64,000 nt of DNA, taken from positions 4,325-68,324 of the forward strand of contig DATCDZ010000152.1 of assembly GCA_036510395.1 (NCBI GenBank). Reading direction: 5' to 3'. Below are positions 1-16,077 of this stretch, one piece after another. The stretch's first letter is position 1. The number at the start of each line of letters is the position of its first letter. The notes under the pieces were generated by a model that searched no databases, was not told the origin of the DNA, and saw only the letters and a program-made list of their open reading frames with translations. The position numbers were made by a program, and so were the translations under genes. This DNA comes from Verrucomicrobiia bacterium (GTDB lineage: Bacteria > Verrucomicrobiota > Verrucomicrobiia > Limisphaerales > UBA11358).

Positions 1-2648
1 TCGGCAACATTGGTCAGCATGTTGTTAGGCCCAAATTTGAAAGTGCGCCCCTGACGCTCTTGAAGAACAAACGCGCCATTGGTTTTGGCGAGTGTCATTG
101 TGCAATTTGCGGGTGGCGTGAAGGAACCGTCCGGTTGTTTGGTAAATTGAAGTGTATCGTTTCCAAGATTGACCGACACGGCGTTGTTGATGAGTTGGTC
201 AACGCCCCACTTGGCGATGAGCGCCGTGACCATCCAGTTCTTCGCGTCAAGTGTGCCAGTGTTGGTATAGAGATTGAGGGCTGCATAGGTGGCAACGATC
301 ATCGGGGCCATCTGTTGGACGGTTTCGGTGCCCAAACTGCCTTCGGGATCACTGATAGGCAGGGCATTGCAGTAGTAACTGTTCAACCAGCCCGGTCCCA
401 TGCCCGCCGGATTGGAATTAAGGCGGTCGGATGAATAGGATTGCGTCAGATTCAAGCCTCGCGGCTCCGTTCCGCCCAAAGTCAAGGCGGTGGTCGAGAA
501 TTGCAGACTTCCGTCCACCAAGTTCACCGGGTCGGCTCCAAATTGCGTCGGAATCTGCAACGTGTCGGATTGCGGATTGAAAAATGTCGGCTGGTTGTCG
601 CCGGATTCCTGCACGTAGGGCGGATTGATGGTGGCGTTTGGATTCGAGACATAACCGCCGTGGTAGCCGCCTCCGATAATCATGCCCATTGACCTACCAC
701 CGTTCGCGCTGACTCCCAATTCCACGTAGCCATCTCCCGCCCAACTGCTGGCTCCGGCAACATGGTTGGAGCCATTCTGCGGCAACAACAGGATATAACC
801 ATTGCCGATGAGACCGTCCAAGGTGCTCAATGAGGAGCCATAATTAACGAGACTATTGCGGATGTTTGGCCCGCTTGTCCAGTCGGAACTGCTGGCCAGA
901 TAGACGGGCTGCGAGTTTGAGTTGGCGATGTCGAGCATTTTCACCGTGGACGCGGCTACCAGATTGCTGTCCTGCAATTGCTCGATAATTCCATGTTCCA
1001 TCGCGCTGGCGATGTAGCTGTCCACGTCAAAGACCTGATAGCTTCGCTGAAAGTCGGCGGTGTTCGCGCCGCTGTTTGGCAGCGTGCCGGTCAGTTGTAG
1101 ATAAACGTCCACGTAATAACCGCGACCGGCTTCCTCACCCATGCGTCCAAAACGATGTTGGTTTTCCGGCAATAGTCCCCATTCCTGGCAGAGAAGCTCC
1201 TGCGCTAATTCCGTTTGAACCATCCAGCCCAAGCCCATGACATTGAGCGTCTCGGTGGTGACTTGCCGCGATGTATCCGAGTAGCCTTCGGCCCGGTAAG
1301 CGTCCAATTTCCGCTGCCGTTCTTGCAGCCAATACTGGCTCGGCTCGAACCCATACATGATGGCGTAGGATGAATTTGTGCGTTGATAGGCGTTGGTCGA
1401 ACTTAAATCAAATCCCTTCGATGGTCCGCCATCAATCGGAACTTGCAGTGTGCTGTTCCAACCGCCGCCGTAGGGATGCGTGGCGCTGAAGATGACGTTC
1501 ACTGTGTTTGAAGTTCCTGTGGCTGATGTTTGCAAGACTTCTGAATCGTCCTGCCAAAGCTGCGCCACTCCGTTGTTGGAAAATGTGAGCGAAATTCGGT
1601 CTCCTTCCAGTTGCGGCGTGAACCACGTTTGATTGGTTCCGCCGAACGTCATGGAAAATGTTCCCATGAAATTGGTCGGCTCGTTTTGCCAATTCAGTAG
1701 TGGATAAGTGCTGTTGGTATACATGGGAAATTCCAGAGACGTGCTCAATGGCAATCCGCTTGAGGACACAATCTGCTGCCCGCCGATGAGTTGAGCGTCG
1801 GTGGCATTGGGGATGTTATTGGAGATGTAGCCAAGCAGGTTGCTGTTACACGTCTGCAAATCACTTCGCACGGACGTTTCACTTAATCCGCTGACGGCAT
1901 AGCCGCCCGTATCTGTTCCGCCCGCATCGCTCAAGAGCTTGTTGGTATTGAGCATCATGGCCGAAGCCAAATCAACGCCGCTCACCGGCTCGCTCACCTT
2001 GAAGGCCGGGTCGAGGTAATAGTTGGTGCCGCCCACGCTCAAATTCACCCAGATCCTTTGAAAGGCAATGGTGTTCGTGTCGCTCCCAAAAGTATACCAT
2101 GCCGGATTGCCGCGAGTGCCCATGAGGTAACTGAAAAACAAAGTCGTATTGTCCCAATTCGTATTTTGGAGACTCAATCCGAGCCAATGATGCAGGTCTT
2201 GGTGATTGGCCGGGTTGTCGTAGGGCATTTTCAACATCGCAAATTGATAGCTTGGCGAATAACCCGCCGTCCGCAATAGCGCCACCAGCAGGGCGCATTG
2301 GTCGAAATCGTTGCCGCTGCGCTCCAGCAAGGTCAACGCCGCGCCTTTCTTCGAGCCGAAATAATGCACATACCGGATTTGGTCATGCACATAATTGAAG
2401 ATGCGGGTGGGGTCATCGCCCAAGTTGCTGGCCAGCGCCTGAATATCCGGCGTGACCGCTTCCGCCACCGCCGGTCCGGTTTCATTCAAGGGACTTGCCT
2501 GAGCTTGAAAAAGAGGTTGTGCGCCGCCCGTCTCTTGTGAAGGGGCAAGGGCGTTGGTCGTTTCAGCCCAAGCCGGGTCGGTGCCTTGCGCCCGGCCAAT
2601 GCTGGAAATCGTCAGCAATCCAAAAATCAAATATCGCAATGTTTTCAT
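1..2648 (-). CDS. Secreted transglutaminase-like / RHS-family N-terminal (DUF6531-like) protein, partial (C-terminus beyond left edge)
   Basis: Absent from the ORF track because it runs off the left edge. My minus-strand translation from ATG 2648-2646 stays open to nt 3 (both ends re-checked codon by codon). MKTLRYLIFGLLTISSIGRAQG is a signal peptide. LERSGNDFDQCALLVALLRTAGY is a transglutaminase-core-like Cys motif. GADPVNLVDGSLQFSTTALTLGG...LNLTQSYSS resembles the motif preceding RHS/YD repeats. Confidence 0.7.
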   Translation of the reverse strand, partial: MKTLRYLIFGLLTISSIGRAQGTDPAWAETTNALAPSQETGGAQPLFQAQASPLNETGPAVAEAVTPDIQALASNLGDDPTRIFNYVHDQIRYVHYFGSKKGAALTLLERSGNDFDQCALLVALLRTAGYSPSYQFAMLKMPYDNPANHQDLHHWLGLSLQNTNWDNTTLFFSYLMGTRGNPAWYTFGSDTNTIAFQRIWVNLSVGGTNYYLDPAFKVSEPVSGVDLASAMMLNTNKLLSDAGGTDTGGYAVSGLSETSVRSDLQTCNSNLLGYISNNIPNATDAQLIGGQQIVSSSGLPLSTSLEFPMYTNSTYPLLNWQNEPTNFMGTFSMTFGGTNQTWFTPQLEGDRISLTFSNNGVAQLWQDDSEVLQTSATGTSNTVNVIFSATHPYGGGWNSTLQVPIDGGPSKGFDLSSTNAYQRTNSSYAIMYGFEPSQYWLQERQRKLDAYRAEGYSDTSRQVTTETLNVMGLGWMVQTELAQELLCQEWGLLPENQHRFGRMGEEAGRGYYVDVYLQLTGTLPNSGANTADFQRSYQVFDVDSYIASAMEHGIIEQLQDSNLVAASTVKMLDIANSNSQPVYLASSSDWTSGPNIRNSLVNYGSSLSTLDGLIGNGYILLLPQNGSNHVAGASSWAGDGYVELGVSANGGRSMGMIIGGGYHGGYVSNPNATINPPYVQESGDNQPTFFNPQSDTLQIPTQFGADPVNLVDGSLQFSTTALTLGGTEPRGLNLTQSYSSDRLNSNPAGMGPGWLNSYYCNALPISDPEGSLGTETVQQMAPMIVATYAALNLYTNTGTLDAKNWMVTALIAKWGVDQLINNAVSVNLGNDTLQFTKQPDGSFTPPANCTMTLAKTNGAFVLQERQGRTFKFGPNNMLTNVA

Positions 2649-2666
2649 TTGTTAATTCCTTTCCAA

Positions 2667-4136
2667 TTATTGTGAAACCGACAGCACGTTGCCTTCATTG
2701 TCCAAGTTGATGTTTCCATATCTGACGCCGGTGACCGAATCCAGCCAGTCGGCAAAGGTGTAATCGTAAGTTGAGCGCGTGCTTGGCTGCGCGAATTGGT
2801 TGACAATCGGGCTTAATCCAAGCAAAACATCCCAACCGTCGGACAAACCGTCGCCGCTGGTGTTATAGACGTTCGGATCGGATTTTGAAACCAGCAGTTC
2901 GTAAGCATCTGTCAATCCGTCGCCGTCTGAATCTTTAGGCGTCCCTAGAATCAGGAAACACGCCGTGCTTGGCAGGTTTGTCAGGGTATAGATGTTTCCG
3001 TGGTAGCCCTGTCCCATCCACGCCCAAGGCATTCCGGTTGGGCCGAATGACAGGACTGAATTTGCAAAGACATCATACGGCACGCCGTCGGAGCCTCCCT
3101 GAATTGTGAACGTCATCGCCATTCCGCCGTTGGTAACGCTGGTGGTGACATTTGTAATCCAAATATTGGTGCTGGTGATGGCGGAAACCGAGCCGACAAG
3201 CTGCAAGCCGCCCTGTCCGGTGATGGCGTCATAATAGGTCGGCGAACCGGACGGATTTGAAGGTTCGGAAACGATGTTTTCCATCGCCGTGTTCCAAGGA
3301 TTGATCTCGTAATAGGTGTAATACCAGTCAAAAATGGTTTGAACATCGTTGGAACTCAGCGGGTAATTGTAGGTGGCCACGGTGTTGAACATCCCGTGAG
3401 CCTGATTGGTTCCACTGCTCGAACTGCCAATCCAGAACCCGTTGGCCAGAACATCGGGGCCGGGATAAACCGTCACTCCGGGGCCGTTGGTGGCCAGCAC
3501 GCCGTCCAGATACAAGGCCGTATTCGTCGGCGAATATGTCAGCGCAACAAAATGGAAATAGTTGGTCGTCCATGAAATCGGGGCGGAAAGGTAGGTCGTG
3601 ATGCTGTCAGACAAGTCGTTGGTCTGTGCGGCAAAATAAATGTTGTTTCCGCCTTCATCCACAAAAATACTCCACCAGCCATAGCTGTTATCATCCGTGT
3701 AGCTGCCGACTTCAATCAGGCGTCCGTATTGGCCCAGTCCCGTTCCGCCCGCATTCGTGCTCGACCAGGATGATGGCGCGAACCAAAAAGTAACGGTGCC
3801 TGAATCAACCGTCAGGTTTGTGGTTCCGTCATTTTCATAGACGTTATATTGCAACCAAGCCGGGACATTGGTGTCCACGACGAGGGATGAGCCGTTGCCA
3901 AGATGTGAGTAGTTTAGGTTGGTGAACGAAACCGGCGCGTAGCCGGCGTCGCTTGTCCAGTTGGTACTGTCATAAAATGACCACGAATCCAGCGGCGCGT
4001 TTGTCGGCCCATATCCACCGCCGCCGGATGGCGGCACTTGTGCATGAGCCGTCCCTGCCAGAGAATAGAGCAGCATTGCAGGGATGATCAGCCGGATTAA
4101 CTGATAGTTCAATTTAATGTGATTAACAGTTTTCAT
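2667..4136 (-). CDS. Secreted LamG/ConA-like lectin-domain protein with C-terminal Asp-rich (TSP3-like) repeats
   Basis: 489-aa ORF with an N-terminal hydrophobic signal (LIIPAMLLYSLAGTAHA). LamG-like pattern: GTVTFWFAPSSW...YFHFVALTYSPTNTALYLDGVL...GFWIGS. C-terminal DSDGDGLTDAYE and SGDGLSDGWD repeats. It stops 18 nt upstream of the start of feature 1 on the same strand. Confidence 0.75.
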   Translation of the reverse strand: MKTVNHIKLNYQLIRLIIPAMLLYSLAGTAHAQVPPSGGGGYGPTNAPLDSWSFYDSTNWTSDAGYAPVSFTNLNYSHLGNGSSLVVDTNVPAWLQYNVYENDGTTNLTVDSGTVTFWFAPSSWSSTNAGGTGLGQYGRLIEVGSYTDDNSYGWWSIFVDEGGNNIYFAAQTNDLSDSITTYLSAPISWTTNYFHFVALTYSPTNTALYLDGVLATNGPGVTVYPGPDVLANGFWIGSSSSGTNQAHGMFNTVATYNYPLSSNDVQTIFDWYYTYYEINPWNTAMENIVSEPSNPSGSPTYYDAITGQGGLQLVGSVSAITSTNIWITNVTTSVTNGGMAMTFTIQGGSDGVPYDVFANSVLSFGPTGMPWAWMGQGYHGNIYTLTNLPSTACFLILGTPKDSDGDGLTDAYELLVSKSDPNVYNTSGDGLSDGWDVLLGLSPIVNQFAQPSTRSTYDYTFADWLDSVTGVRYGNINLDNEGNVLSVSQ

Positions 4137-4302
4137 AGATTACCTTTTGGAAGTTGGCTCCCCTTTTGCACCCGCAGCGTGGCTGGATTCGCCAGATTCA
4201 TCTGACCATAAAATCTTGCAACATGAGTCCCCGTTGAGTCCAGAGGTTTTCTGTGACTTTGAGGAAACATTTACCCGACAATTATTATAGCAATGTATCC
4301 CG

Positions 4303-4581
4303 TTGTCAATCATCTTTCCCCATGAGTTCAAAATTCGCGTCTGGCACGCTTCGGGGGTGGCGAAAAAAACACTCCAGTTCAACATCCGCATGTCCGAGGA
4401 ACAGCGCACGGAATTGGAAGCCATGTGCCGCCGCCGCCGCCGTCCGTTGAGCTTCCAAGTGGAACATCTGATTGCCTTGGCTAAACTGCTCATTGAATTT
4501 TGCGATGGCAACGATGATCTGGAAATTGCGCGTGAACGGCTGGCCGCTGCCAAAAAGCGTTTGCCAAAAAAGGGCAGTTGA
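4303..4581 (+). CDS. Ribbon-helix-helix (CopG/MobC-like) DNA-binding protein; probable true start GTG 4357
   Basis: KKTLQFNIRMSEEQRTELEAMCRRRRRPLSFQVEHLIALA fits the strand-helix-helix pattern of RHH proteins. The competing antisense ORF 4140-4658 has no recognisable features. Confidence 0.45.
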   Translation: MSIIFPHEFKIRVWHASGVAKKTLQFNIRMSEEQRTELEAMCRRRRRPLSFQVEHLIALAKLLIEFCDGNDDLEIARERLAAAKKRLPKKGS

Positions 4582-4654
4582 ATCGCAACTGAAACATTTC
4601 GCCCACACCTTTCTAAAAAGTGCGCTTCCCGATTAAATTGTTGGAATAGGTTGG

Positions 4655-5077
4655 TCATGCCGTTGCGGTTTCTTCGACGAGGGAAAGAATGCGGGAAAGG
4701 AAATCCTGCGTGTCAAATGGCTTCTCAATGAAATCCGCTGCACCAAGGTCAAGGCCACGCTGCTGATTTTCAATACTGGCATTTCCGGCCACAAATACAA
4801 TTGGTGTTTCCGCGAGGCGGGGGATTTGCCTCAAACGCGTGAACAGGTCGAACCCACTGCTGCCGGGCATTTCAAGGTCAAGGGTGATTAAATCGAACAC
4901 TTGCGTTTGAGCCAGACGCAAAGCTTTTTCGGCATCCAAAGCTCCTTGTGTTTCGCAACCGGCTCGTGTCAGCAGAAATCGCATCATCGTCACCACGGCC
5001 ATTTGGTCGTCCACCACCAGAATTTTCGCTTTAGCTGTCATAAACCCGTGTCGTGAAGATTTGTTATCAGTTTTCAA
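4655..5077 (-). CDS. Stand-alone CheY-like receiver-domain response regulator
   Basis: KILVVDD...FDLITLDLEMPGSSG...PIVFVAG...ADFIEKPF. The probable start is ATG at 5041 (MTAKAKILVVDD). Confidence 0.85.
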   Translation of the reverse strand: MKTDNKSSRHGFMTAKAKILVVDDQMAVVTMMRFLLTRAGCETQGALDAEKALRLAQTQVFDLITLDLEMPGSSGFDLFTRLRQIPRLAETPIVFVAGNASIENQQRGLDLGAADFIEKPFDTQDFLSRILSLVEETATA

Positions 5078-5143
5078 ATCGAAGTCAACACTGTTCTCTT
5101 AAAAGAACAGAAGTTTCCGGCACTGACCTAGCCTTTAATCTGG

Positions 5144-5449
5144 ATGACTGCTCCGCTCAATCTCGTCGGCCCCCAGGTGCGGCGATTTCGCATCAAGAAA
5201 CATTGCACGCAGGAAGCACTGGCGGCCAAGCTGCAAGTCGAGGGCTGGGATGTCAGCCGCGAATCGCTGGCCAAGCTGGAATCGCAATTCCGCCGGGTGC
5301 CGGATTGCGAATTGCTGTTTCTGGCCAAAGTTCTCGGTGTCGAGGTCATGGATTTATTTCCGGCCAAACCGGATTTGAAAAAACTCGACCCGGCGTTGCG
5401 CCTGAAAGTGTCCACCAAATTTCCCCGCCGCAAGTCCCGCCGTTCGTAG
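5144..5449 (+). CDS. XRE-family helix-turn-helix transcriptional regulator
   Basis: VGPQVRRFRIKKHCTQEALAAKLQVEGWDVSRESLAKLESQFRRVPDCELLFLAKVLGVEVMDLF is a typical HTH_3/Cro-C1 pattern. Confidence 0.8.
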   Translation: MTAPLNLVGPQVRRFRIKKHCTQEALAAKLQVEGWDVSRESLAKLESQFRRVPDCELLFLAKVLGVEVMDLFPAKPDLKKLDPALRLKVSTKFPRRKSRRS

Positions 5450-5519
5450 GCGATGATTTTCTGGGTTCCGATTTCTTCCTGTTTCCCCCCCGCGCTCATT
5501 TGGCTGGCGCGGCTGCGCT

Positions 5520-5543
5520 CCTGAAAACAAGAGTGTTTTCAGG
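5520..5543. terminator. Hairpin between convergent genes (possible bidirectional terminator)
   Basis: Perfect 9-bp stem CCTGAAAAC / GTTTTCAGG with a 6-nt loop, lying between the 5449 stop (+) and the 5580 stop (-). No U-tract. Confidence 0.35.
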
Positions 5544-5579
5544 AACCTTGGATTCGCTTGGGGAAAGGGATGCGGCAAA

Positions 5580-6548
5580 CTATTTTGCCGGGTTGTTGGT
5601 GGCTTGCGCCTGATTTTCACCGTCCGGAAGCAAGTGCCGGATTTGTTTTTGGGAGACGCTGCTGCGAAAGAAAATACAGCCATTATTTTGTCCGTTGACC
5701 TGACGCATATCAGCGGCGTAAGCGCCTTCAATCACCAGCACAAATCCCGGTGGACTGGCAAAGCTGTCATTTTGCGTCGGCAACACTTTGATGGGAATTT
5801 GGGCAACGGCCAGCATGTGAAACGCCACCTGATTGAATTGCATGACCTGCGCCATGTCATCAATTTGGATGGCCATTTTGCGGTCGTAGCGGGCGGCAAG
5901 CTCCAAACTAATCAGGCAGGCAATGAGAAGAGCCGCCCCCATGCTCCAAAAAAAACTGGTGGTCCAAGCGGTTTTCCAAATTCGTTTCGTCCATTCGGAC
6001 TTGGCTTCATCGGCGGCATCCTGAATTTTCTCCAGCGTTGGCATGACCTTCCAAGCCAGATCGTTTGTATGCTGCACGAACGGCGCGATGATTTTCTGGT
6101 TGATGCCGGATTGAATCGAGTTTTGAATCCCCTGCACGATGGCCTTGGTGTCCACCTGTGCGCCAAGATTTTTCATCGTCAATTCAATGGCCGCAATGGT
6201 TTCATCGCATTTTTCTTGGGTTGCGCGGCAAAGCTCGTCGGTCTTTTCGGCGTGATCCGTGATGTTGGCATCGCGGGTTTCAATCGTTTTGGCGAGCAAA
6301 CTAACTTCGTCGCGCAGTTCCTGAAAGGTCGCCAGCGAATCGGCGTTGGCCGAAATCATCCGGGCGGGGATGCGTTCGGCGTAATGGGCATACACGTCCA
6401 GCACGAGAAAAAGCTGGCTAAAAAACTGCGTGCTGTCGCCGTCGGCGAAGCGATAATAAACCGCCCGCGCCAGCTCCCGCTTTTCAGCGGGATAGGCGGC
6501 AAGCATTTCTTCAAACAATTCGGATTCGGGCATAACATCTCCTTTCAA
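5580..6548 (-). CDS. Hypothetical coiled-coil protein with one central TM segment (third gene of the ParA-like operon)
   Basis: 322-aa ORF whose start overlaps the upstream stop by 4 nt. The N-terminal half is helical and acidic; the hydrophobic segment is TTSFFWSMGAALLIACLISL. I recognise no family. Confidence 0.6.
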   Translation of the reverse strand: MKGDVMPESELFEEMLAAYPAEKRELARAVYYRFADGDSTQFFSQLFLVLDVYAHYAERIPARMISANADSLATFQELRDEVSLLAKTIETRDANITDHAEKTDELCRATQEKCDETIAAIELTMKNLGAQVDTKAIVQGIQNSIQSGINQKIIAPFVQHTNDLAWKVMPTLEKIQDAADEAKSEWTKRIWKTAWTTSFFWSMGAALLIACLISLELAARYDRKMAIQIDDMAQVMQFNQVAFHMLAVAQIPIKVLPTQNDSFASPPGFVLVIEGAYAADMRQVNGQNNGCIFFRSSVSQKQIRHLLPDGENQAQATNNPAK

Positions 6549-7372
6549 TTCGTGAGATTCACTTTCGCGCCGCGCTTGGCTGAAAATGGTTCGCCGATGG
6601 GCGGCGCGGTTTTAGGTTTGATGGTGGCCGCTTCAACGGCGGGCAACAGCTTGGCGGCAATCTGGTCGTATTGATTGAACATGGTGGCGAGCCAGTCCTG
6701 CAACACGCCCCGCGCCATGATGTCGAGGCCGAGCGAGTCGTTGCCGATGGCTTCATTGAACGGGATGCCGCGCTGATGGTCGGCCTCTAACTTCGCCAGC
6801 CGAAGCTTCACAAATTCCGACAGCACCGGCACGGTGATGGTCACTGCACCGCAGTCGAGCAATTCCTTTTCCATCGGGCTGTTGTCAAACATTCTGGTTT
6901 TGGATGCCCGCGCCGGATTACGGACAATGACATAATCCACCTGCCTGCCGCAGAACTGGCAGACGGCGGCAAGATTGGTCATCACGTCCAAGTCATCGAA
7001 TGGAAACACCATGAGCGTGATGCCGATGTTCTGCGTGGCGGCGATGTCAAAGAAATGCGTGGCCGATAACGCCTTCATCAGTTGCGCGTCCAGATGCGCC
7101 CGTGGGTCAATCAGGGTGACGGGTTGGGCGGTCGTCTTTCGCAGAATCAAAATGAGTTCGTCCAAGTCTTCGGCCTGGCCGTTTAGCGGTATGAGTTTGA
7201 CCTGGCCGGGGAATAATCGGGACAGAGTGCGGTTGTCGCCGTCCAGATCAAATCCCTGCCACGGGAGGCCACGTTGGTTAAGCCAGCACGCGCGGGCGGT
7301 GGCTTCGATGCTTTTGCCCATGTTACCTTTGGCCTGCATGGGCAGAATCAGGCGATGTTTTATAGTTTTCAT
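6545..7372 (-). CDS. ParA/MinD-superfamily P-loop ATPase (plasmid TraL/MobD-like)
   Basis: Deviant Walker A near the N-terminus (PMQAKGNMGKS), a size of 275 aa, and 4-nt overlaps with both neighbouring genes. Confidence 0.65.
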   Translation of the reverse strand: MKTIKHRLILPMQAKGNMGKSIEATARACWLNQRGLPWQGFDLDGDNRTLSRLFPGQVKLIPLNGQAEDLDELILILRKTTAQPVTLIDPRAHLDAQLMKALSATHFFDIAATQNIGITLMVFPFDDLDVMTNLAAVCQFCGRQVDYVIVRNPARASKTRMFDNSPMEKELLDCGAVTITVPVLSEFVKLRLAKLEADHQRGIPFNEAIGNDSLGLDIMARGVLQDWLATMFNQYDQIAAKLLPAVEAATIKPKTAPPIGEPFSAKRGAKVNLTN

Positions 7373-7716
7373 ATTGGGAGGTTATTGAACTGATATGGAT
7401 TATCTGTTTTGGTTGTTGTTGTTGCTGCCTGCGCCGGCGTCGGTGCCGATGCAGATGGATTCACCGTGTCCGGCTGTGCCGTCACCGCTTCGTTTTCCCA
7501 ATGAGACTGCGCCTGACGTTTCAGGTAGCGCCGGTAGAACTGGTGCAATCCCTGAAACGTGATGACGCAATCCTTTTCGGTGCGCAGCCGGGCGGCGATT
7601 TCCTGCCACGTTCGGCGCTGCTGGCGTTGCTCGCGGATAAACTCCGCGAACGCTTCGAGGCGGCTGCGATAAGCGCGTCCGCCGCCACGCCGTTTAATTT
7701 TGATTTCCGAATCCAT
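7369..7716 (-). CDS. Small basic putative DNA-binding protein (first gene of the operon divergent from the relaxase operon)
   Basis: 115 aa. The Arg-rich N-terminus RRGGGRAYRSRLEAFAEFIREQRQQRRTWQEIAARL is HTH-like. It sits next to the GTTGAA iteron array. Confidence 0.5.
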   Translation of the reverse strand: MDSEIKIKRRGGGRAYRSRLEAFAEFIREQRQQRRTWQEIAARLRTEKDCVITFQGLHQFYRRYLKRQAQSHWENEAVTAQPDTVNPSASAPTPAQAATTTTKTDNPYQFNNLPI

Positions 7717-7750
7717 TCGCCACCAGTTTAGGCCAGCCGATGGCGGTTGC

Positions 7751-7795
7751 GTTAGCGAGTAGTGGGCGGGTTAAGCAGGAAAGTGGGCGAGTTAA
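7751..7795 (-). promoter_or_regulatory. Element-specific conserved box (full copy 7751-7773 plus half copy 7782-7795) upstream of the 7716 operon
   Basis: Read in the gene direction: TTAACTCGCCCACT-n7-TTAACCCGCCCACTACTCGCTAAC, ending 34 nt before the ATG. The 23-nt core is identical to 14060-14082 and near-identical to 9631-9649. Confidence 0.55.
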
Positions 7796-7815
7796 ACGCG
7801 ATAGCGTTTTTACCT

Positions 7816-7916
7816 GTTGAAAGGCGTTGAATCGCCGGGTTGAAACCGGTTGAACGGTGTTGAACCGTGACGTTGAAAGGTGTTGAATCGCGTTGAATTC
7901 ATCAACGCTTTTCAAC
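7816..7916. repeat. Iteron array: 8 direct GTTGAA repeats plus inverted copies
   Basis: GTTGAA starts at 7816, 7826, 7839, 7849, 7859, 7872, 7882 and 7892 (spacing 10/13/10/10/13/10/10 nt). TTCAAC follows at 7911, with a GTTGAT-type inverted variant at 7902-7907. The sub-repeat GTTGAAAGG(C/T)GTTGAATCGC occurs twice. Confidence 0.85.
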
Positions 7917-8230
7917 GCAATTTTTCATGGCGTCCGGCGCGCAACCGAGAACCTACGATTTTTCGTAGGGGTGGGGCGTCCACCTTTTAAGCTGACGAAT
8001 AGGAAGCTAAACAATTGATTAAATACCGGGCGATTAGCGTTGAATCGGAATGTTGCAAATGAATTACCACCATGATGAATTTCAGTCGGATGCAACTGAA
8101 ACGGATGATTTAGGAATCACGTTTGGGAAAGATTGAACCGGCATACGTTTCAAAACCGATGATAATTTCTTAACGGGAATTGGTGATGAAAATTCAACCC
8201 GTATATCAGCATTGATTACCGTCAGCACTG

Positions 8231-8301
8231 AATGGCCGTTTCAGAAACCGGAGCGAAACGAAACGGATGAGCAGAGGAGCGCGGTTTTTGAAACGGCCAT
8301 T
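8231..8301. repeat. 20-bp inverted repeat (19/20 match) with a 31-nt spacer
   Basis: AATGGCCGTTTCAGAAACCG (8231-8250) pairs with CGGTTTTTGAAACGGCCATT (8282-8301). Confidence 0.8.
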
Positions 8302-8332
8302 GAGTGCGTCACCGGATAGGTTTGAATCACGC

Positions 8333-8408
8333 GGCGTTTAGTCTGTCCGGTTTCCGAGAGCCGCAGGAAAGCCGAACAGTCTAAACGCCGTTGCCGCATA
8401 TTGTGGAT
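8333..8408 (+). other. Candidate oriT core: imperfect hairpin followed by a nic-like GCATATTGTGGAT
   Basis: GGCGTTTAGTCTGT (8333-8346) pairs with ACAGTCTAAACGCC (8376-8389) at 13/14 positions. GCATATTGTGGAT lies 6 nt downstream (8396-8408). As I recall, the R388/TrwC nic region is GGTGCGTATTGTCT/AT just 3' of a hairpin. The resemblance is weak. Confidence 0.3.
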
Positions 8409-8464
8409 TGTGTTTCAGAGCGATTCTGAATTCAAAAATTCAGGCAGGCTCGCCGATGGGTTAC

Positions 8465-8943
8465 GGGAAAGGATGGGGCAAGCGGTGACTGAATTCTGCC
8501 GGAAATCCAAGCCAAAAGCCTTTTTCATTTTGTTCCAAAATGGAACGAAGCTGCCCAGGCAATCTGGAAAAATACTGCCAATGGTGACATTCGTTTTTGC
8601 AAAGTTTGCAGGAGCGGAGCCGGTTGTTCCGCGAGAATGTCAGCCGAAAAAATAAACCAACGTGACGCATGAAAAATAAATCCGAAAAATGGCGGCAGAC
8701 TGGCCGATGGTTTTTGGGGAAAGGACGGAGCCATGAACGGCCAAATTCCGCCGGGAATGAATGCCGCAAGTGCTTTTCACTTTGTTTCATTTTGAAACAA
8801 TTACCACTGCCTGTTCTGCCAGAATGGTTCCATGAATTTATATTTCGACCAAGTTGCGGGAAAGGATTGGGTCAGGCGGTCGTTGAATTCCGCCGTGAAT
8901 CCAGACCGGAAAAAAAATTCATTTTGTTCATGGGGTGAACAAA
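8465..8943 (+). repeat. Three dispersed ~85-nt U-repeats (8465-8546, 8717-8800, 8858-8943), each ending in a hairpin
   Basis: Shared skeleton: GGGAAAGGA..GG...AATTC.GCCG.GAAT...TTTCA.TTTGTT-hairpin. The terminal hairpins are GTTCC-aaaat-GGAAC, (TT)GTTTC-atttt-GAAAC(AA) and (TTT)GTTCA-tgggg-TGAAC(AAA). Confidence 0.8.
8608..8710 (+). repeat. V-repeat copy 1 (paralogue of the leader and first codons of the 9183 gene)
   Basis: GCAGGAGCGGAGCCGGTTGTTCCGCGAGAATGTCAGCCGAAAAAATAAACC..GTGACGCATGAAAAATAAA...CTGGCCGATGG aligns with 9117-9222. It contains the hairpin GCGGA-n9-TCCGC followed by a GAGAAT -10-like hexamer. Confidence 0.75.
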
Positions 8944-9116
8944 GCGGCTTCGCCAATCCGATAAGATGCCGCCAAATAACAGCCATGAAAAATGACAGCC
9001 AAAAAAATCATTGTGGCAAAAGTGGTGGCTTCATCCTGTGTGTTTTCCGCACTGGATCGCCCGCAAACTCTGCCAAAGTGGGAGCCGTTGGGAAAATTCG
9101 AGTTGTGCAATGGGCT

Positions 9117-9222
9117 GCACAAGCGGAGCCGGAATTTCCGCTAGAATGTCTGCCGGAAACATAAATAAACCGTAGGTGACGTATGAATAATGAAGCGCCA
9201 AACAACCTCGCTGGCCGGATGG
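9117..9222 (+). repeat. V-repeat copy 2 = probable promoter/leader and 5' end of the 9183 gene
   Basis: GCACAAGCGGAGCCGGAATTTCCGCTAGAATGTCTGCCGGAAACATAAATAAACC..GTGACGTATGAATAATGAA...CTGGCCGGATGG. It has the same GCGGA-n9-TCCGC hairpin and a TAGAAT hexamer. Confidence 0.75.
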
Positions 9223-9605
9223 AAAAAGAGATTCGCGTCAAGCCTGGAAAAAATAAAGAAGCAGCAGAACAGCGAGCCAGTGCCGTTTATGTGCTCAACA
9301 ACGAACTCAAGGCGATCTTGAATCTGAACCGGCCACCGGCGCGTTTGAACACGGCGCAGACCGCCGCCTACCTCGGCTTCAAACCGCATGACATCCCGGT
9401 GCTGGCCGCGCGGGGATTCCTCAAGCCGTTGGGCGACCCGATGCCCAACAGCGATAAATACTATGCGCGGGCAAGGGTGCTGGAACGGTTGGACGATGAG
9501 GAATGGCTGTCACTGGCAACAGCGGCCTTGAGCCAGCATTGGCAGAAGAAAAACGCCAGCAAAACCAAAAAGCGGAATGGTCATGCCCGGCCAGTTAAAA
9601 AATGA
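9183..9605 (+). CDS. Helix-turn-helix (excisionase/MerR-like) protein, putative relaxosome accessory factor
   Basis: LNTAQTAAYLGFKPHDIPVLAARGFLKPLG resembles excisionase-family HTH_17 proteins. It lies immediately upstream of the relaxase on the same strand and has a basic C-terminal tail. Confidence 0.6.
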   Translation: MNNEAPNNLAGRMEKEIRVKPGKNKEAAEQRASAVYVLNNELKAILNLNRPPARLNTAQTAAYLGFKPHDIPVLAARGFLKPLGDPMPNSDKYYARARVLERLDDEEWLSLATAALSQHWQKKNASKTKKRNGHARPVKK

Positions 9606-9630
9606 ACTATTCGGTTTAACCACGACCAAC

Positions 9631-9649
9631 TCGCCCACTACCCGCTAAC
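9631..9649 (+). promoter_or_regulatory. Element-specific conserved box upstream of the relaxase gene
   Basis: TCGCCCACTACCCGCTAAC ends 33 nt before ATG 9683. It has the same orientation relative to its gene as the copies at 7751 and 14060. A degenerate upstream half-site is TTAACCACGACC. Confidence 0.55.
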
Positions 9650-9682
9650 GCGGGAAATGCGTTTTGATTTACGCTGGCGGCC

Positions 9683-12649
9683 ATGCTTGCACCGAAAGCC
9701 CAATACAACCCGGTTGACGCCAAAAAGTATTTCAAGGAACACCTGGCGGTCGGCGATTATTATGCCGAGGGGCAGACCGTTCCCGGCCAATGGATCGGCA
9801 AGGACGCGGAAGATTTGGGCTTGTCCGGCGTAACCACCACCGATGAGTTTGTCCGGCTCTGCGACAATCTCCATCCGCAAACCGGCGAACGGCTGACACT
9901 CCGGCAAAAAACCACGCGGATTGAAAAGGGGATTGATGGCGAAGAACGGCAAGCCGCCAATCGCCGGGTTTTTTACGATTTCACTTTTTCCCCGCCCAAA
10001 TCGGTTTCCATTGCCGCGCTGGTCGGCAACGACGCTCGGATTGTCGAGGCGCATGAGCAGGCCGTGACGGTGGCCATGCACCAGTTGCAAACCTTCGCGG
10101 CAACGCGCGTGCGGAAAAACGATGAATGCACGGACCGGCATACAGGCAACCTCGTGGCCGCGATGTTCCGGCATGACACCTCGCGCGCTTTAGACCCGCA
10201 TCTGCATACGCATTGCATCGTGTTCAACGCCACGTTTGACGCGGTGGAAAAGCAATGGAAGGCATTGCAGAACCATGAAATGTTCGCCGCGCAAAAATTT
10301 GTCGAGAATGTTTATTACCATGAACTCACGCGCGAAATGGTGAAGTGCGGCTATCAGATTGAAAACAAACCGCGCGGCGATTTTGAAATCAAGGGCGTCG
10401 CGTCGGAACTGATTGACAGGTTTTCCAAGCGGCACCGGGAGATTGACCGGAAAACCAGGGAACTGCTGGCGCGTGAACCGGAAAAGGCGGGCGACAACAT
10501 TGCGGCGATTCGGGAGAACATCGCGCACAAGGACCGGCCACGGAAAATCCGGGACATCGGTTTGGAAAAATTGCAAACGCTGTGGGACGGCCAGATGACA
10601 GCGGGCGAAAGGGCTTCGCTGGATGGGCTGACGGTGAAGCCGTCCGTCGCGCCCGTTTCCAGCGAGAAGATTTGCGAGCAGGCCGTGACGTGGGCGGAGC
10701 AACACCTGTTTGAACGTCATTCCATCGTCCATGAGCATGAACTGTGGCGGCACGCGCTGGAACGCGTCAGAGGGCAGGACGTTTTACTGGCGGACATTCA
10801 GGCCGTCACTCAAAAACGCGGCTATCTGCACTTCGACGAGCATCCCGGCAAGGTTTCCACGCGGGAGCATCTTGAACGTGAAATGGAAATTGTCCAGAAG
10901 GCCAAAGAGGGGATTGGCGAATGTCATCCGCTGGTCTGGCAACCGAAGCCCTTCAATCCCATGTTGGATGGGGAACAGCGCGAAGCCCTCGCCGCGCTGG
11001 TTTCCAATCGTAACCGGGTCGCGGTCTTTCGTGGCGGTGCCGGCACGGGCAAAAGTTTCGTGCTGCGCGAGCTGGTCGGGCAAATCCGCGACGGCGGGCG
11101 CGGCGTAGTCGTCCTCGCGCCGCAACGCCAGCAAGTGCTGGACATGGAACGGGACGGCTTTCCGTCGCCGCTGACGGTTGCCAGTTTTCTGCAAAAGAAA
11201 GAACTCCAAGAGGGAACGGTGGTGATCGTGGACGAGGCCGGGCAGATTGGGGGCAAGCCGATGTTGGAACTGCTCCGGCTGGTTTCTGAACGCAATGCGC
11301 GGCTGATTTTGTCGGGGGACACGCGCCAGCATGGGGCGGTTGAGGCGGGGGACGCGCTGCGGGCGATTGAAAAACATTCCGGCGTCTCGCCAGTGGAATT
11401 GACCAACATCCGCCGCCAGAATCCGGCGCTGGCGAAGTCAATCGAGGAGCGCAAGCATATCAAGGAATACCGTCAGGCCGTCGAGGCAGCGCGTGACGGC
11501 AAGTTCGCGGAATCGTTTGCACGGCTGGACAAATTGAAAGCGATTGAGTCCTGCACGCTGGCCGACAAGCATGAAAAGCTGACGGCGCGTTATCTGCAAC
11601 TGGTGAAAGATCATCAGTCCACCGTGGTCGTCTCGCAAAGCTGGAATGAGATTCACCAGGTCAACGACGCGATTCGTGTTGCGCTTAAAAATGAAAAGCT
11701 CGTCGGCGAAGCGGAAACCACGGTCACGGCATTTCAGCCGGTGGATTTGACGGAAGCGCAAAAGCGCGATGTCCGTTCTTATGATGCCAATACGGTGCTG
11801 GTGTTCAATCGTGACGTGCGCGGGTTCAAGGCCGGTGAATCGGCGCGGTTGAAATTGATTACCGACACGCATTTGCTGGTGGAAACGGACACGCGCATCG
11901 TCCCCATTTCCTTCAAGCAGTTGGACAAGCTGACGGCCTGCCAGCGCAAGGAATTGGCTTTGGCCGCTGGCGACAAGCTGCAACTCAAGGCGAATGGCCG
12001 CAGCGTGGAAAACCGCAAGCTGGTCAACGGCGAACTGGTCACGGTCAAGGCGGTCCAGCCTGACGGCCGCATTGCACTGGCGGATGGCAGGGTCTTGGAT
12101 AAAAACTTCCGGCAGTTCGTCCGGGGCTACGCCATCACGTCCTATGCGTCACAAGGCAAGTCGGTGGAACACGTTTTGTTTTCGGATTCGGCGGCGAAGG
12201 CCGCGACGAACCAGCAGCAATGGTATGTCACGATTTCGCGCGGCAAAAAGGGGATTCATATTTTCACCACGGACAAGGAGCAGTTGCGGGAGAACATCAC
12301 GCGCAGCGGGGATCGCCCATCGGTGGTGGATGTGCTGATGGCACATTACCGGAAACATGATTCGTTTTTTCGCATGATTGAACGGAGTTGGGGAACGCGG
12401 CTGGCGCTCACCATGACCAACAGCAAACGCGCCAGAGAATTTCGCGCGCTGCGCCAGCGGCAAAACCAAAGTCAGGCGCAAGCGCAAACTGAAACGATCA
12501 AGCAAACGGTTGAATCCAATGAGCCGCGCCAGCAACCCGTCCAGCCACCGGCGCAAAGCCACATGGCTGAAACCACGGAGCCGAAAATCAAGCCGCACCT
12601 GATTTTCCCGGAAGTCCCGAAAAAACAGTCGCGCGGTTACAGGCCGTGA
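9683..12649 (+). CDS. MobF-family relaxase (TrwC/TraI-like) fused to a RecD-like helicase
   Basis: N-terminus: DAKKYFKEHLAVGDYYAEG...GQWIGKDAEDLGLSG. Histidine triad: HDTSRALDPHLHTHCIVFNATF. Walker A: FRGGAGTGKS, with LILSGDTRQHGAVEAG. C-terminal helicase motif: ITSYASQGKSVEHVL...YVTISRGKKGIHIFT. Confidence 0.9.
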   Translation: MLAPKAQYNPVDAKKYFKEHLAVGDYYAEGQTVPGQWIGKDAEDLGLSGVTTTDEFVRLCDNLHPQTGERLTLRQKTTRIEKGIDGEERQAANRRVFYDFTFSPPKSVSIAALVGNDARIVEAHEQAVTVAMHQLQTFAATRVRKNDECTDRHTGNLVAAMFRHDTSRALDPHLHTHCIVFNATFDAVEKQWKALQNHEMFAAQKFVENVYYHELTREMVKCGYQIENKPRGDFEIKGVASELIDRFSKRHREIDRKTRELLAREPEKAGDNIAAIRENIAHKDRPRKIRDIGLEKLQTLWDGQMTAGERASLDGLTVKPSVAPVSSEKICEQAVTWAEQHLFERHSIVHEHELWRHALERVRGQDVLLADIQAVTQKRGYLHFDEHPGKVSTREHLEREMEIVQKAKEGIGECHPLVWQPKPFNPMLDGEQREALAALVSNRNRVAVFRGGAGTGKSFVLRELVGQIRDGGRGVVVLAPQRQQVLDMERDGFPSPLTVASFLQKKELQEGTVVIVDEAGQIGGKPMLELLRLVSERNARLILSGDTRQHGAVEAGDALRAIEKHSGVSPVELTNIRRQNPALAKSIEERKHIKEYRQAVEAARDGKFAESFARLDKLKAIESCTLADKHEKLTARYLQLVKDHQSTVVVSQSWNEIHQVNDAIRVALKNEKLVGEAETTVTAFQPVDLTEAQKRDVRSYDANTVLVFNRDVRGFKAGESARLKLITDTHLLVETDTRIVPISFKQLDKLTACQRKELALAAGDKLQLKANGRSVENRKLVNGELVTVKAVQPDGRIALADGRVLDKNFRQFVRGYAITSYASQGKSVEHVLFSDSAAKAATNQQQWYVTISRGKKGIHIFTTDKEQLRENITRSGDRPSVVDVLMAHYRKHDSFFRMIERSWGTRLALTMTNSKRAREFRALRQRQNQSQAQAQTETIKQTVESNEPRQQPVQPPAQSHMAETTEPKIKPHLIFPEVPKKQSRGYRP

Positions 12650-12656
12650 ACGGCGG

Positions 12657-12950
12657 TCAGTCCAGCGGGTAATCGTCGTGGTCATAATAGTCCGGCGGTT
12701 CCCACAACGGCGGGGCAAACGGTGGTGGTGGTGGCGTTCCCGGCAATTGAATGAAAATCGCTGGCCGGACGTGGGACATGGGTTTTCCTCTCTTTGGTCG
12801 CAATGCGCCGCATAATACCCACACCAAAAGAGCCAGCAAAAGATAGATGGCTCCGATGAGAAAATAGAGCGCATGGTCGTGAACGAATCCGTCAAGGTGT
12901 TTCAATCCCGACGTTTCCAGTTCGAGTGCCTTAATTTGCCAAGGTTGCAT
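12657..12950 (-). CDS. Small membrane protein with a Pro-rich acidic tail (hypothetical)
   Basis: Preferred start is ATG 12950, preceded by GGAGGA (12955-12960) directly after the integrase stop. TM segment: YFLIGAIYLLLALLVWVLCGAL. Tail: PPPPPFAPPLWEPPDYYDHDDYPLD. The track start at 13007 would overlap the integrase. Confidence 0.5.
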   Translation of the reverse strand: MQPWQIKALELETSGLKHLDGFVHDHALYFLIGAIYLLLALLVWVLCGALRPKRGKPMSHVRPAIFIQLPGTPPPPPFAPPLWEPPDYYDHDDYPLD

Positions 12951-12960
12951 GGTGTCCTCC

Positions 12961-14034
12961 TTATGCGGCAACGGCTTTCGCCGCTGGTTCGGGGTTGTGG
13001 CTTCCAATAATCACCTTCTGTTGCCGCTCGTATTCGCTCAAGGAAGGCATTTCCACCGGCGCTTTGCGGGAATAGGCCCGCGTCATGGCCTTGCTGTTGT
13101 GGCCAAGATTCACCTGGGCATACCGTTCGGGATAGCCCGCCGTTTTTGCCCGTTCTGCCCACGCGTAACGGTAGCTGTGCAGCGAGACGCCTTTGATGCC
13201 AAGTCCATCGCAGCGTTGTTTGAACTCCGTGGCGCGGTCACCAGAGCGCACGGTTCGCATATATGGAAACAAGGGGCCGCTCCCCGGCAAGTCGCGCAGG
13301 ATTTCCGCCATGTCTTCATCAAAACGCATGATGGCAATCGAGCCGGTCTTCTGGCGCGCATAGCTGATGACGTGGTGTTCCCAATCAACGTCCTCGGCGT
13401 TCAAGCCCGCCAGATCGGATTGCGATGCGCCCAAGTGCCACGCCAGTTTGTAGAACGCCTTGCGTTCGGGATTGTTCTCGCGGGCGACGATGGCCAGATG
13501 TTCCGCCAGCGTGATGCCGCGCTTCTCTTTGAACTCGACGGCGGGCCACTGGCGTTTCGGCACCAGCGGCCACGGCAGCCAGTTCATGTCCACGCAGAAA
13601 TTGTGCAACCGCCGGAGATAAACATTCGTCGAGACGGTTCCCATTTGCAGGACTTTCAGAATCGCTTCGCCCTTGCTTTCGATGATGACCTGCGGCAAGA
13701 GCATCGCCAGTGCCTTGTCCTTCGCGGCGGTTTTCCAGCGATGTTGATTCGCTCCCTGCTTGGTGCCAATCAACGACTCAATGGCGTTCTGCCATGTCCG
13801 CGTGGTCAAGCCCGTGTCCGAACCGGCCAGATACGCCTTGGCGATTTGCAGGTTAAGAACGGGCTGGCGTTCGGAGTTGTTCTTGGCCGCGACAACCTGC
13901 TTGGCATCGTCCTCATTGGCCGTGCCGAGACTGGTGCGCTTGCCGGTGCTGGTGTCCACGCAATAAAACTTATTGCCCCGGATACCACGACGAATTAAGC
14001 GATAACGTGTTTTCATAGTATTACGCAATCGCAA
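12961..14034 (-). CDS. int: Tyrosine recombinase / phage-type integrase
   Basis: C-terminal catalytic region: GVSLHSYRYAWAERA...NLGHNSKAMTRAYSR. The likely true start is ATG 14016 (MKTRYRLIRRG), since 14034 is a TTG. It lies 155 nt from the tRNA-Cys 3' end. Confidence 0.9.
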   Translation of the reverse strand: MRLRNTMKTRYRLIRRGIRGNKFYCVDTSTGKRTSLGTANEDDAKQVVAAKNNSERQPVLNLQIAKAYLAGSDTGLTTRTWQNAIESLIGTKQGANQHRWKTAAKDKALAMLLPQVIIESKGEAILKVLQMGTVSTNVYLRRLHNFCVDMNWLPWPLVPKRQWPAVEFKEKRGITLAEHLAIVARENNPERKAFYKLAWHLGASQSDLAGLNAEDVDWEHHVISYARQKTGSIAIMRFDEDMAEILRDLPGSGPLFPYMRTVRSGDRATEFKQRCDGLGIKGVSLHSYRYAWAERAKTAGYPERYAQVNLGHNSKAMTRAYSRKAPVEMPSLSEYERQQKVIIGSHNPEPAAKAVAA

Positions 14035-14059
14035 GAATAACTGAAGCCGGTTCCGCAGA

Positions 14060-14082
14060 GTTAGCGAGTAGTGGGCGGGTTA
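14060..14082 (-). promoter_or_regulatory. Element-specific conserved box upstream of the integrase
   Basis: GTTAGCGAGTAGTGGGCGGGTTA is identical over 23 nt to 7751-7773. In the gene direction it is TAACCCGCCCACTACTCGCTAAC, ending 43 nt before ATG 14016. Confidence 0.55.
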
Positions 14083-14188
14083 GTGCCGGTTACGCTAGAT
14101 TCTAACGGAGTAGATAAACTGGTGTCCGTTCTGGTGTCCTTTGACACCCTCGCACCTCTTAAACCATTGCTGCAATAACAGTTAGGAA

Positions 14189-14263
14189 TGGAGGCGGGAG
14201 TCGGAATCGAACCGACGAATGCAGCTTTTGCAGAGCCGTGCCTTACCACTTGGCTACCCCGCC
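14189..14263 (-). tRNA. tRNA-Cys (anticodon GCA), CCA encoded
   Basis: The reverse complement GGCGGGGTAGCCAAGTGGTAAGGCACGGCTCTGCAAAAGCTGCATTCGTCGGTTCGATTCCGACTCCCGCCTCCA folds by hand into a cloverleaf. It has a 7-bp acceptor stem, anticodon loop CUGCAAA and T-arm GTCGG-TTCGATT-CCGAC. Confidence 0.93.
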
Positions 14264-14328
14264 ACAGGGATTGTGAGTTTAATTTTCTTTCGCGTCCGAA
14301 TCAAGCTAAGTTTCGGCTCGACCACTTC

Positions 14329-15456: not shown

Positions 15457-15548
15457 TAAAAAATAAAACCGCGAATAGACACTAATTCACACGAATATTC
15501 TTGAGCCGGGGAATTTCCCGTTTGTTTGAGTCCATTCGTGGTTAAAAA

Positions 15549-15965
15549 TCACCGGACAGTGGCTTTCATCCGCCGGATTTTTTCCTTGAGGTTGCCGTAG
15601 GCCGGCTGCTGACGGAATTTTTTCAGGTCCGGATCCCTGGCGAGCCACGCGAAATCGCGGTAGCCGAGGCTCAACGCTTTTTCCAGCGCGAACGCGGCGC
15701 GGTCGAACTGGCCGGTGAGCGAGTAGCTGCACGCGAGGTTGTAAAACACGAGCGGACTTTCGGGTTCGAGCCGCGCGAGGCGTTCGTCCACGTCCAAGCC
15801 CTCGCTGAAGCGCCCGCGTTGCGTGTAGTGGTCGCCGAGCAACTGGAGGGCGTCCACATAATTCGGATCGCGGCGGACGATTCCCTCCATGAATTCAATC
15901 CGCGTGTCGAGGTCGCGCTGGCTGGCGCGGCTTGTGCTTTTTCTGCTGCTGCTTTTTAACGGCAT
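15549..15965 (-). CDS. TPR-repeat protein
   Basis: 138 aa with TPR-like helices: ALQLLGDHYTQRGRFSEG...VFYNLACSYSLTGQFDRAAFALEKAL. Confidence 0.65.
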   Translation of the reverse strand: MPLKSSSRKSTSRASQRDLDTRIEFMEGIVRRDPNYVDALQLLGDHYTQRGRFSEGLDVDERLARLEPESPLVFYNLACSYSLTGQFDRAAFALEKALSLGYRDFAWLARDPDLKKFRQQPAYGNLKEKIRRMKATVR

Positions 15966-16077
15966 ACGACACGGCGAAATTGGAGAACCCGCGCCGCCAA
16001 GTCAAGCGGCGGAATGTGAAAAACTTTTTGTGGCGTTGCGCGGCGCGTTGTGCAAAATGAAAACAGCTTCATTCAGC

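Follow-up and report, generated by a model that had tools for sequence, protein, structure and literature searches.

A GTTGA repeat array beside a predicted MobF transfer origin in a verrucomicrobial integrative element: a probable, diverged module of the Stb/TraKLM type

Introduction

Modules that set a ParA-like ATPase beside an origin of transfer (oriT), such as Stb, TraKLM and VirC, couple plasmid inheritance to conjugation; work on them has so far dealt almost entirely with proteobacterial plasmids. In R388 and R46 (IncW/IncN), stbABC adjoins the oriT of a MobF plasmid, and StbA binds two sets of five 9-bp repeats separated by 2-nt spacing, the stbS (stbDR) array (Guynet et al., PMC3098194). 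StbB is a ParA-like ATPase and StbC an orphan; RP4 (IncP-1) TraK/TraL/TraM and pTF-FC2 MobC/MobD belong to the same class, with TraL and MobD also ParA-like and MobD grouped with TraL (PMC3098194). StbA is required for stability and restrains conjugation, and StbB is required for conjugation if StbA is present (PMC3098194). The DNA-binding domain of StbA is a three-helix helix-turn-helix (HTH), followed by a non-conserved C-terminal domain, and the protein also represses promoters via its repeats (bioRxiv 10.1101/2022.04.29.490116). In Agrobacterium and the gonococcus, the VirC1/VirC2 and ParA/ParB pairs act directly on relaxosomes, promoting their assembly and substrate delivery (PMC8716806, citing Atmakuri 2007). 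Here we report an array of GTTGAA hexamers at positions 7816 to 7916 of a 64,000-nt stretch of a Verrucomicrobiia genome (contig DATCDZ010000152.1; hereafter the window). It lies upstream of a three-gene operon for a basic 115-aa protein, a ParA-like ATPase and a 322-aa protein, on what looks like an integrative mobilisable element. From our comparative analysis, the array and the three genes probably make up an oriT-adjacent module of the R388 StbA/stbS/StbB/StbC or RP4 TraK/L/M type. The kind of system is known; the one described here is a diverged variant, in a new phylum, on a new element type and with a different repeat grammar.

Results and Discussion

An exact-match scan places eight direct copies of GTTGAA on the plus strand (7816-7897), starting at 7816, 7826, 7839, 7849, 7859, 7872, 7882 and 7892, with start-to-start spacings of 10, 13, 10, 10, 13, 10 and 10 nt (mean 10.86). 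Past them, two inverted cores on the minus strand, ATCAAC (7901-7906) and TTCAAC (7911-7916), cap the array 10 nt apart, and a 20-nt sub-repeat, GTTGAAAGG(C/T)GTTGAATCGC, occurs at 7816-7835 and again at 7872-7891. The open reading frame (ORF) for the 115-aa protein has its ATG at 7716 on the minus strand, 100 nt from the start of the gene-proximal hexamer. In all of this the sequence-only reading that had singled out the locus was accurate: it had counted eight hexamers at 10-13 nt (mean about 10.9), followed by inverted TTCAAC and ATCAAC, with a longer sub-repeat present twice and a start some 100 nt upstream of the operon's first gene. Eight same-strand copies in 101 nt form the densest cluster of any hexamer across the window, and in 200 dinucleotide-preserving shuffles of the window the densest hexamer cluster reached only 3-5 copies per 101 nt. 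The same reading had put the sites on one face of the helix, which holds roughly and fails in its strict form. A repeat search recovered a 33-nt super-unit with three GTTGAA sites, Tandem Repeats Finder reported a weak 10-nt period only, and a period of 10.97 bp fits the sites best (R = 0.90). If a turn of 10.5 bp is assumed, they scatter over ~140 degrees, with a phase coherence of R = 0.72. The array is therefore best described as an 11-bp lattice of 33-nt triplets (10/13/10) and not strictly as one face of B-DNA.

Where direct and inverted copies meet, they form the palindrome GCGTTGA-ATTCA-TCAACGC (7890-7908), a possible nucleation site for a dimer. A lone GTTGAA, within TAGCGTTGAATC, lies on the plus strand at 8039-8044, beyond the nick predicted below; it recurs at the same offset, ~147 nt past the last direct copy, in most close relatives. 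A scan of 7600-9750 for sigma-70 promoters and terminators returned nothing near the array above shuffle expectation.

Related elements were collected with two queries: the ATPase gave 37 loci, in Verrucomicrobia (Limisphaerales) genomes from peat and soil metagenomes, several of which yielded more than one locus, and the small protein gave 80 metagenome loci. A search of these relatives for the same hexamer periodicity, as the earlier reading had advised, found it in all 56 distinct upstream regions of elements that encode a small protein with 62-100% identity to that of the window. Each of the 56 arrays carries 5-10 direct GTTGA cores, GTTGA being the family-wide core, on a 10/10/13 lattice that amounts to one site per 11.0 bp; inverted TCAAC cores number two in 35 arrays, three in 20 and one in a single array. 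Cores are spaced by 10 nt (221 cases) or 13 nt (84), and by 20, 23 or 33 nt where a core has decayed. In distant arrays the spacers and the sixth base have changed, the 10/10/13 phase has shifted and whole 10-nt units have been gained (e.g. GTTGAACTGC, three times in locus L084); the junction GCGTTGA-N5-TCAACGC, with its 7-nt arms and 5-nt spacer, is retained there as GCGTTGAAATCATCAACGC. Within the close group, entropy is 0.16 at core positions against 0.36 in the spacers (P = 6e-4).

The first gene of the operon (7369-7716, minus strand) encodes the presumed array ligand, a 115-aa protein that is basic as had been claimed, with an isoelectric point (pI) of 10.1, or 10.6 for residues 1-76. 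Its AlphaFold model (AF2) consists of a three-helix HTH over residues 13-76 (helices 13-32, 37-48 and 54-76; block mean pLDDT, the predicted local distance difference test, of 85-93 over residues 21-70) and a disordered tail, residues 77-115, that ends in NPYQFNNLPI. The small proteins of all loci constitute one family (28-68% identity) with a common framework and a C-terminal (Y/H)(R/Q)FN..I tail. Among 46 homologues of the window's GTTGA class, the predicted recognition helix, helix 3 (residues 52-66), shows almost no variation; in sister elements with another helix 3, the corresponding position carries another repeat motif. Thus, helix 3 GLHQFYRRY accompanies GTTGA; APYRFYRRK (L005) accompanies GCGGCAA, in five direct and two inverted copies; SVYRFCER accompanies TTTGCGCAA; and SV(H/Q)R(F/Y)C(Q/E)R accompanies TTCGCGCGAA. 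This holds with zero exceptions in the 32 informative elements among 34 sisters, the two others being L035, whose helix could not be parsed, and L022, whose top 7-mer is a spacer word even though TTGCGCAA repeats are visible.

The remaining linked components behave otherwise. The ATPase stays 76-98% identical across sister elements without following the motif, and elements that differ in motif can have ATPases of 93-94% identity; two relaxase classes sharing only 44% identity are found with the GTTGA array; and the third protein varies (44-92% identity) independently of the repeat motif. The small protein is the only linked component that varies with the DNA motif, and this provides strong indirect evidence for its role as ligand. 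It very likely binds the GTTGA cores, and the switching of motif with recognition helix on a nearly constant ATPase bears out its earlier nomination as the likeliest ligand. Relaxase, ATPase and third gene are all linked to the array as well, a point in favour of one of them as ligand; yet one array with two such dissimilar relaxases, different arrays with nearly identical ATPases and a third protein whose divergence ignores the motif make a site for the relaxase, for the ATPase itself or for the third protein scarcely credible. Almost as improbable is an array of iterons at an origin of vegetative replication (oriV), with a Rep initiator as the binder. That the repeats are direct, tandem and intergenic, on a mobile element, would suit such an origin. 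Iterons of this kind are typically 17-22 bp, however, whereas the units here measure 10-13 nt with a 5-bp core; in addition, the motif tracks a small HTH protein, the elements are integrated in chromosomes, and Pfam and NCBIfam scans of six element ORFs and two neighbours yielded no Rep match. We therefore rejected replication-origin iterons on the grounds of the missing Rep match in the ORFs scanned, the short units and the integrated state of the elements.

Beyond the array lies what appears to be a nick region. A hairpin, CCTACGA-TTTT-TCGTAGG (7952-7969, plus strand), starts 35 nt beyond the last inverted core and is a candidate relaxase-recognition inverted repeat of the inverted repeat 2 (IR2) type; all sister elements have a hairpin there. 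Of the 189 stem cells in the 27 distinct versions compared, 170 are paired, and at four of the seven stem pairs at least two different Watson-Crick combinations occur; pair 7-18, for instance, is A:T in 17 versions, T:A in 10 and unpaired in none. Directly 3' stands a conserved, presumably single-stranded motif, GGTGGGGCGTCC (7970-7981, plus strand; sole copy in the window), with the nick predicted at or just after GTC. This motif follows the relaxase: it reads GGGGT(G/A)(G/A)GGCGTC with the window's class (relA), GGGGATGGTGTC with the 44%-identical class and GGGAAGATGTC with a third class (relB), and homology between otherwise similar elements stops directly after GTC. In R388, the TrwC nick site starts with an IR2 hairpin; the next 9 nt are read specifically as single strand, and the cut comes after them (PMC4176350). 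A covarying 7-bp hairpin followed by a 3' motif that tracks three relaxase classes matches this MobF-type anatomy, and from this match we infer that 7952-7981 is the plus-strand nick region of an oriT. It is reasonably likely that the call is right and that the array thus forms part of the oriT; strand and exact position are deduced from the sequence pattern. The enzyme expected to cut there is the MobF (TrwC-type) relaxase-helicase encoded at 9683-12649 on the plus strand (TrwC, 2.8e-85; AAA_30; MobF NF041492, 2.1e-70).

Two alternatives for the nick region were discarded. A second hairpin after the main one, GGTGG-GGCGT-CCACC, is not conserved as a structure: its pairing is lost in the variants GGTAGGGCGTCCACC and GGATGGTGTCTAAC, which keep the sequence motif. 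A nick on the other strand was set aside upon inspection by eye, the minus-strand flank 3' of the hairpin being without similarity between classes. The strand call is not airtight, given that GTCTGACGG occurs on both strands in the relB class, as part of a large inverted repeat. In the compact relB loci (e.g. L004 and L008), an 18-nt inverted repeat, CCAATAATTCCGTCAGAC...GTCTGACGGAATTATTGG, lies ~40-150 nt upstream of the small gene and encloses the three array repeats along with a GC-rich hairpin and the nick hairpin; nick-like GTCTGAC consequently appears on both strands.

Further along, the segment 8215-8400 contains two long imperfect hairpins (8225-8307 and 8332-8390) that fold as single-stranded DNA with -47.6 kcal/mol (z = -5.9), and it is ~76% identical in the distant elements L017 and L026 despite their differing flanks. 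If the nick call is right, this segment belongs to the leading region and could be a single-strand initiation signal or a single-strand promoter.

In another reading, the repeats are simply an operator through which the small protein autorepresses its own operon, with no role in transfer or segregation. The array does lie upstream of the operon's first gene, the repeats of other-class sisters are just ~45-100 nt from the start codon, and StbA itself represses promoters through its repeats (bioRxiv 10.1101/2022.04.29.490116). On the other hand, ten sites over 100 bp far exceed what a simple operator needs, in every class the array has the gene on one side and the nick hairpin on the other and is always linked to a ParA-like ATPase, and an element-specific box, TAACYCGCCCACTACYCGCTAAC, which with a degenerate tandem copy occupies 7749-7793 (minus strand) between array and start codon, is nearer the start and the better promoter or operator candidate. 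We thus consider a purely regulatory array unlikely.

The second gene (6545-7372, minus strand), whose start overlaps the small-gene stop by 4 nt, encodes a 275-aa ATPase of the ParA/MinD superfamily with a deviant Walker A, KGNMGKS (residues 15-21). Its Pfam match to CbiA/ParA is weak, and profile matches to MipZ (6.5e-5), Soj and MinD cover the P-loop region only. Its AlphaFold model (pLDDT 94.6) matches the folds of HypB, ParF/TP228 ParA, FleN, MinD and Get3, and G16, G19, K20, D42, D44 and D89 are invariant or nearly so among 63 homologues; the protein accordingly combines a signature-lysine Walker A, the Walker A' and Walker B aspartates and a SIMIBI fold, as superfamily membership implies. 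This is a small family: 1.8 billion representatives contain 318 clusters of it at 50% identity. Distant relatives with 24-27% identity are found on Nostocales plasmids: one on a Calothrix plasmid (L119, AP025019.1) is annotated as 'similar to mobilization protein MobD', and another, on a Tolypothrix plasmid (L120, NZ_CP050444.1, 2363-6451), is the second gene in an operon of three that diverges from mobC, a MOBP relaxase and a type IV coupling protein. No phased array was found in the intergenic region of the latter (4030-4400). From operon linkage and the conserved C-terminal tail of the 115-aa protein, the ATPase may be its partner, as the earlier reading had proposed. The third gene (5580-6548, minus strand) is present in every related locus and has no family match; its 322-aa product, judged by eye from the translation, has a coiled-coil look and a hydrophobic segment.

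A small DNA-binding protein and a ParA-type ATPase beside direct repeats also recall plasmid partition, in which the small protein would be the centromere binder and the ATPase a motor for segregating the excised or plasmid form, while conjugation would not involve them. Type Ib and type II centromeres typically have direct-repeat arrays of ~11 bp (for background, bioRxiv 10.1101/2022.04.29.490116). In such centromeres (e.g. the 11-bp iterons of R1 parC), short direct repeats of ~11-bp period are cooperatively coated by a small protein that works with an NTPase, and the ATPase model is closest to ParF/TP228 ParA, HypB and MinD. Only the array and the ParA-type fold fit, however. In type Ib and II systems the NTPase gene comes first, direct-repeat centromeres usually go with ribbon-helix-helix dimers and the site does not lie against a nick site, whereas here the small gene precedes the ATPase gene, the binder is modelled as an all-helical HTH and the array abuts the relaxase hairpin. 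Moreover, the element is chromosomally integrated beside a tRNA-Cys gene and has its own integrase, and elements of the same specificity co-reside two or three per genome (L001 with L007; L027 with L028 and L034), which is unexpected under strong centromere incompatibility. A canonical partition centromere is, in our judgement, slightly less likely still than the pure operator.

Setting partition aside, the closest likeness of the locus is to Stb. In both, a three-gene operon stands next to a MobF oriT (here, the predicted one) and diverges from the relaxase gene; the first gene encodes a small three-helix HTH protein with a tail (for the 115-aa protein, an HTH of ~65 residues with a disordered tail in the AlphaFold model), the second a ParA-like ATPase with a deviant Walker A and the third an orphan; and isolated extra sites occur elsewhere. 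Stb operons are preceded by arrays of 10 or more direct repeats at an 11-bp period, a period that we read directly from the R46 sequence upstream of stbA and to which the 10.97 bp of the GTTGAA array compares. The locus differs in having a 5-bp core, a 10/10/13 lattice and an inverted cap, against 9-bp repeats spaced by 2 nt, in a Walker A of the form KGxxGKS instead of SGxxGK[T/S], and in its host, a verrucomicrobial integrative element and not a proteobacterial plasmid. To RP4 TraK/TraL/TraM it is similar in the succession of a small basic oriT-binding protein, a P-loop protein (of the classical KGGXXK[T/S] type in RP4) and a third protein, and in a binding region placed between nic, the nick site, and the first gene (PMC3098194). 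RP4 differs in its MOBP relaxase and leading-side operon, the likeness here being drawn through the Walker A type and the MobD-like annotation of the distant relative. The Agrobacterium VirC1/VirC2-overdrive and gonococcal ParA/ParB-TraI systems share with the locus a ParA/MinD-like ATPase and a small DNA-binding partner at a nick-adjacent sequence (PMC8716806). Overdrive, unlike the array, is a single short element without phased repeats, and there the ATPase gene comes first. Taken with the covarying hairpin and relaxase-class motif 35 nt away, the Stb/TraKLM gene order and 11-bp arrays (PMC3098194) uphold the initial impression of a centromere or oriT-accessory pattern, for which RP4 TraK had been named.

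Several observations weigh against the assignment to this class. The phase coherence of the array at 10.5 bp per turn is unremarkable, since random spacings of 8-14 nt match it in 13% of trials (P ~0.13). A Pfam match of the 115-aa protein to MADF/Myb-SANT (21.8 bits) falls just under the 22-bit cutoff, and the protein had no match in NCBIfam nor in the PDB, whether by sequence, by profile or by Foldseek, which gave no significant fold match. A profile of 46 sequences aligned to R46 StbA with an hhalign probability of 0.2%, hence without detectable homology. For the ATPase against R46 StbB, hhalign gave a marginal 21% (E = 1e-3) that spans the P-loop to Walker B only, BLASTP gave nothing, and an NCBIfam scan of the ATPase gave no match. 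Of the element ORFs examined from the window start to tRNA-Cys, a set that did not include every ORF, none was recognised as a type IV secretion system (T4SS) or coupling-protein gene; transfer would therefore require an unseen helper. Finally, as the conserved motif is 3' of the hairpin on the plus strand, array and operon apparently lie 5' (trailing) of the predicted nick, whereas all published Stb operons lie 3' (leading) (PMC3098194; R46 sequence). The position relative to nic is thus probably mirrored with respect to the published systems.

The 5' side of nic is used elsewhere, being also occupied by TraM sites in F and TrwA sites in R388. In F, the TraM sites sbmA-C are repeated between nic and the protein's own gene, on the trailing side, and serve autoregulation and relaxosome signalling; TraM has no ParA-like partner and a fold different from that of the 115-aa protein.

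Under the Stb/TraKLM-type reading that we favour, monomers or dimers of the 115-aa protein would bind the GTTGA cores cooperatively, one per 11 bp, with binding possibly nucleated at the GCGTTGA-N5-TCAACGC palindrome. The coated ~100 bp would end 35 nt from the oriT hairpin and nick motif, and the protein-coated array beside nic would repress its own operon. Via the ATPase, it might also govern the excised element, which would be either positioned for inheritance or handed to the conjugation machinery of a helper. Whether the coated array indeed both represses the operon and governs positioning or hand-over through the ATPase, as in Stb, we regard as an evenly balanced matter.

A more specific and distinctly tentative proposal, which we hold to be more doubtful than credible, is that the array acts as an address tag trailing nic whose specificity can be swapped. 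In the manner of VirC1/VirC2, the ATPase would deliver the excised oriT to the secretion machinery of a helper, and recognition helix and motif would diversify together against cross-talk between siblings. Were this so, the elements would represent a relaxosome-targeting lineage evolutionarily independent of Stb and TraKLM, and would offer a natural series of matched HTH-site pairs.

Other Features of the Element

The three operon genes are on the minus strand, divergent from the plus-strand relaxase gene across an intergenic region of 1.97 kb, against ~320 nt in relB-class sisters. A tyrosine integrase gene (12961-14034, minus strand) directly adjoins tRNA-Cys (14189-14263), and the element has therefore probably inserted there; a search of the window for a direct repeat of the tRNA-Cys end of at least 13 nt, which would mark the other element end, found none. 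Besides its copy upstream of the small gene, the 23-nt TAACYCGCCCACTACYCGCTAAC box occurs at 9628-9651, before the relaxase gene, and at 14061-14083, before the integrase gene, and nowhere else in the 64 kb. It stands 27-34 nt upstream of the small-gene, relaxase and integrase starts in uniform orientation relative to the gene, and is probably an element-wide promoter or operator; relB-class sisters have one copy, between nick motif and relaxase gene. Just upstream of the relaxase gene is a 140-aa ORF (9183-9605, plus strand) without a family match, which by eye resembles an excisionase or AlpA-type HTH and whose relB-class homologue sits downstream of the third operon gene. Between 8434 and 9170 there extends ~1 kb of non-coding sequence with degenerate ~250-nt repeats and a drop in GC content to 0.46, only partly conserved in close relatives. 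An Rfam scan of 1-16000 returned tRNA-Cys only; 8434-9170 had no match, and the idea of a structured RNA is accordingly unsupported.

Related elements sit in chromosomes, on contigs of 0.3-1.5 Mb. Single metagenome-assembled genomes hold two to four of them, for example CAVWJH01 (L006, L008, L010 and L015) and DASYYL01 (L004, L005, L032 and L033). Co-resident elements often have different small-protein/repeat specificities and sometimes the same (L001+L007; L027+L028+L034), and strict mutual exclusion of same-specificity elements per genome was not observed.

Conclusions

A logic similar to that of the proteobacterial modules would now extend to peat-soil Verrucomicrobia, on a small integrase-bearing element whose proteins are too diverged for family models. 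The family supplies four or more natural pairs, each a recognition helix with its repeat motif, against an ATPase that hardly varies. Such pairs form a test system for how a three-helix HTH reads repeats of 5-9 bp on an 11-bp lattice, for whether specificity switching blocks cross-talk of co-resident elements and for whether it matters on which side of nic the module lies. They also suggest a sequence rule by which an oriT may be recognised in uncultured lineages: a repeat array, then a covarying hairpin, then a relaxase-specific motif.

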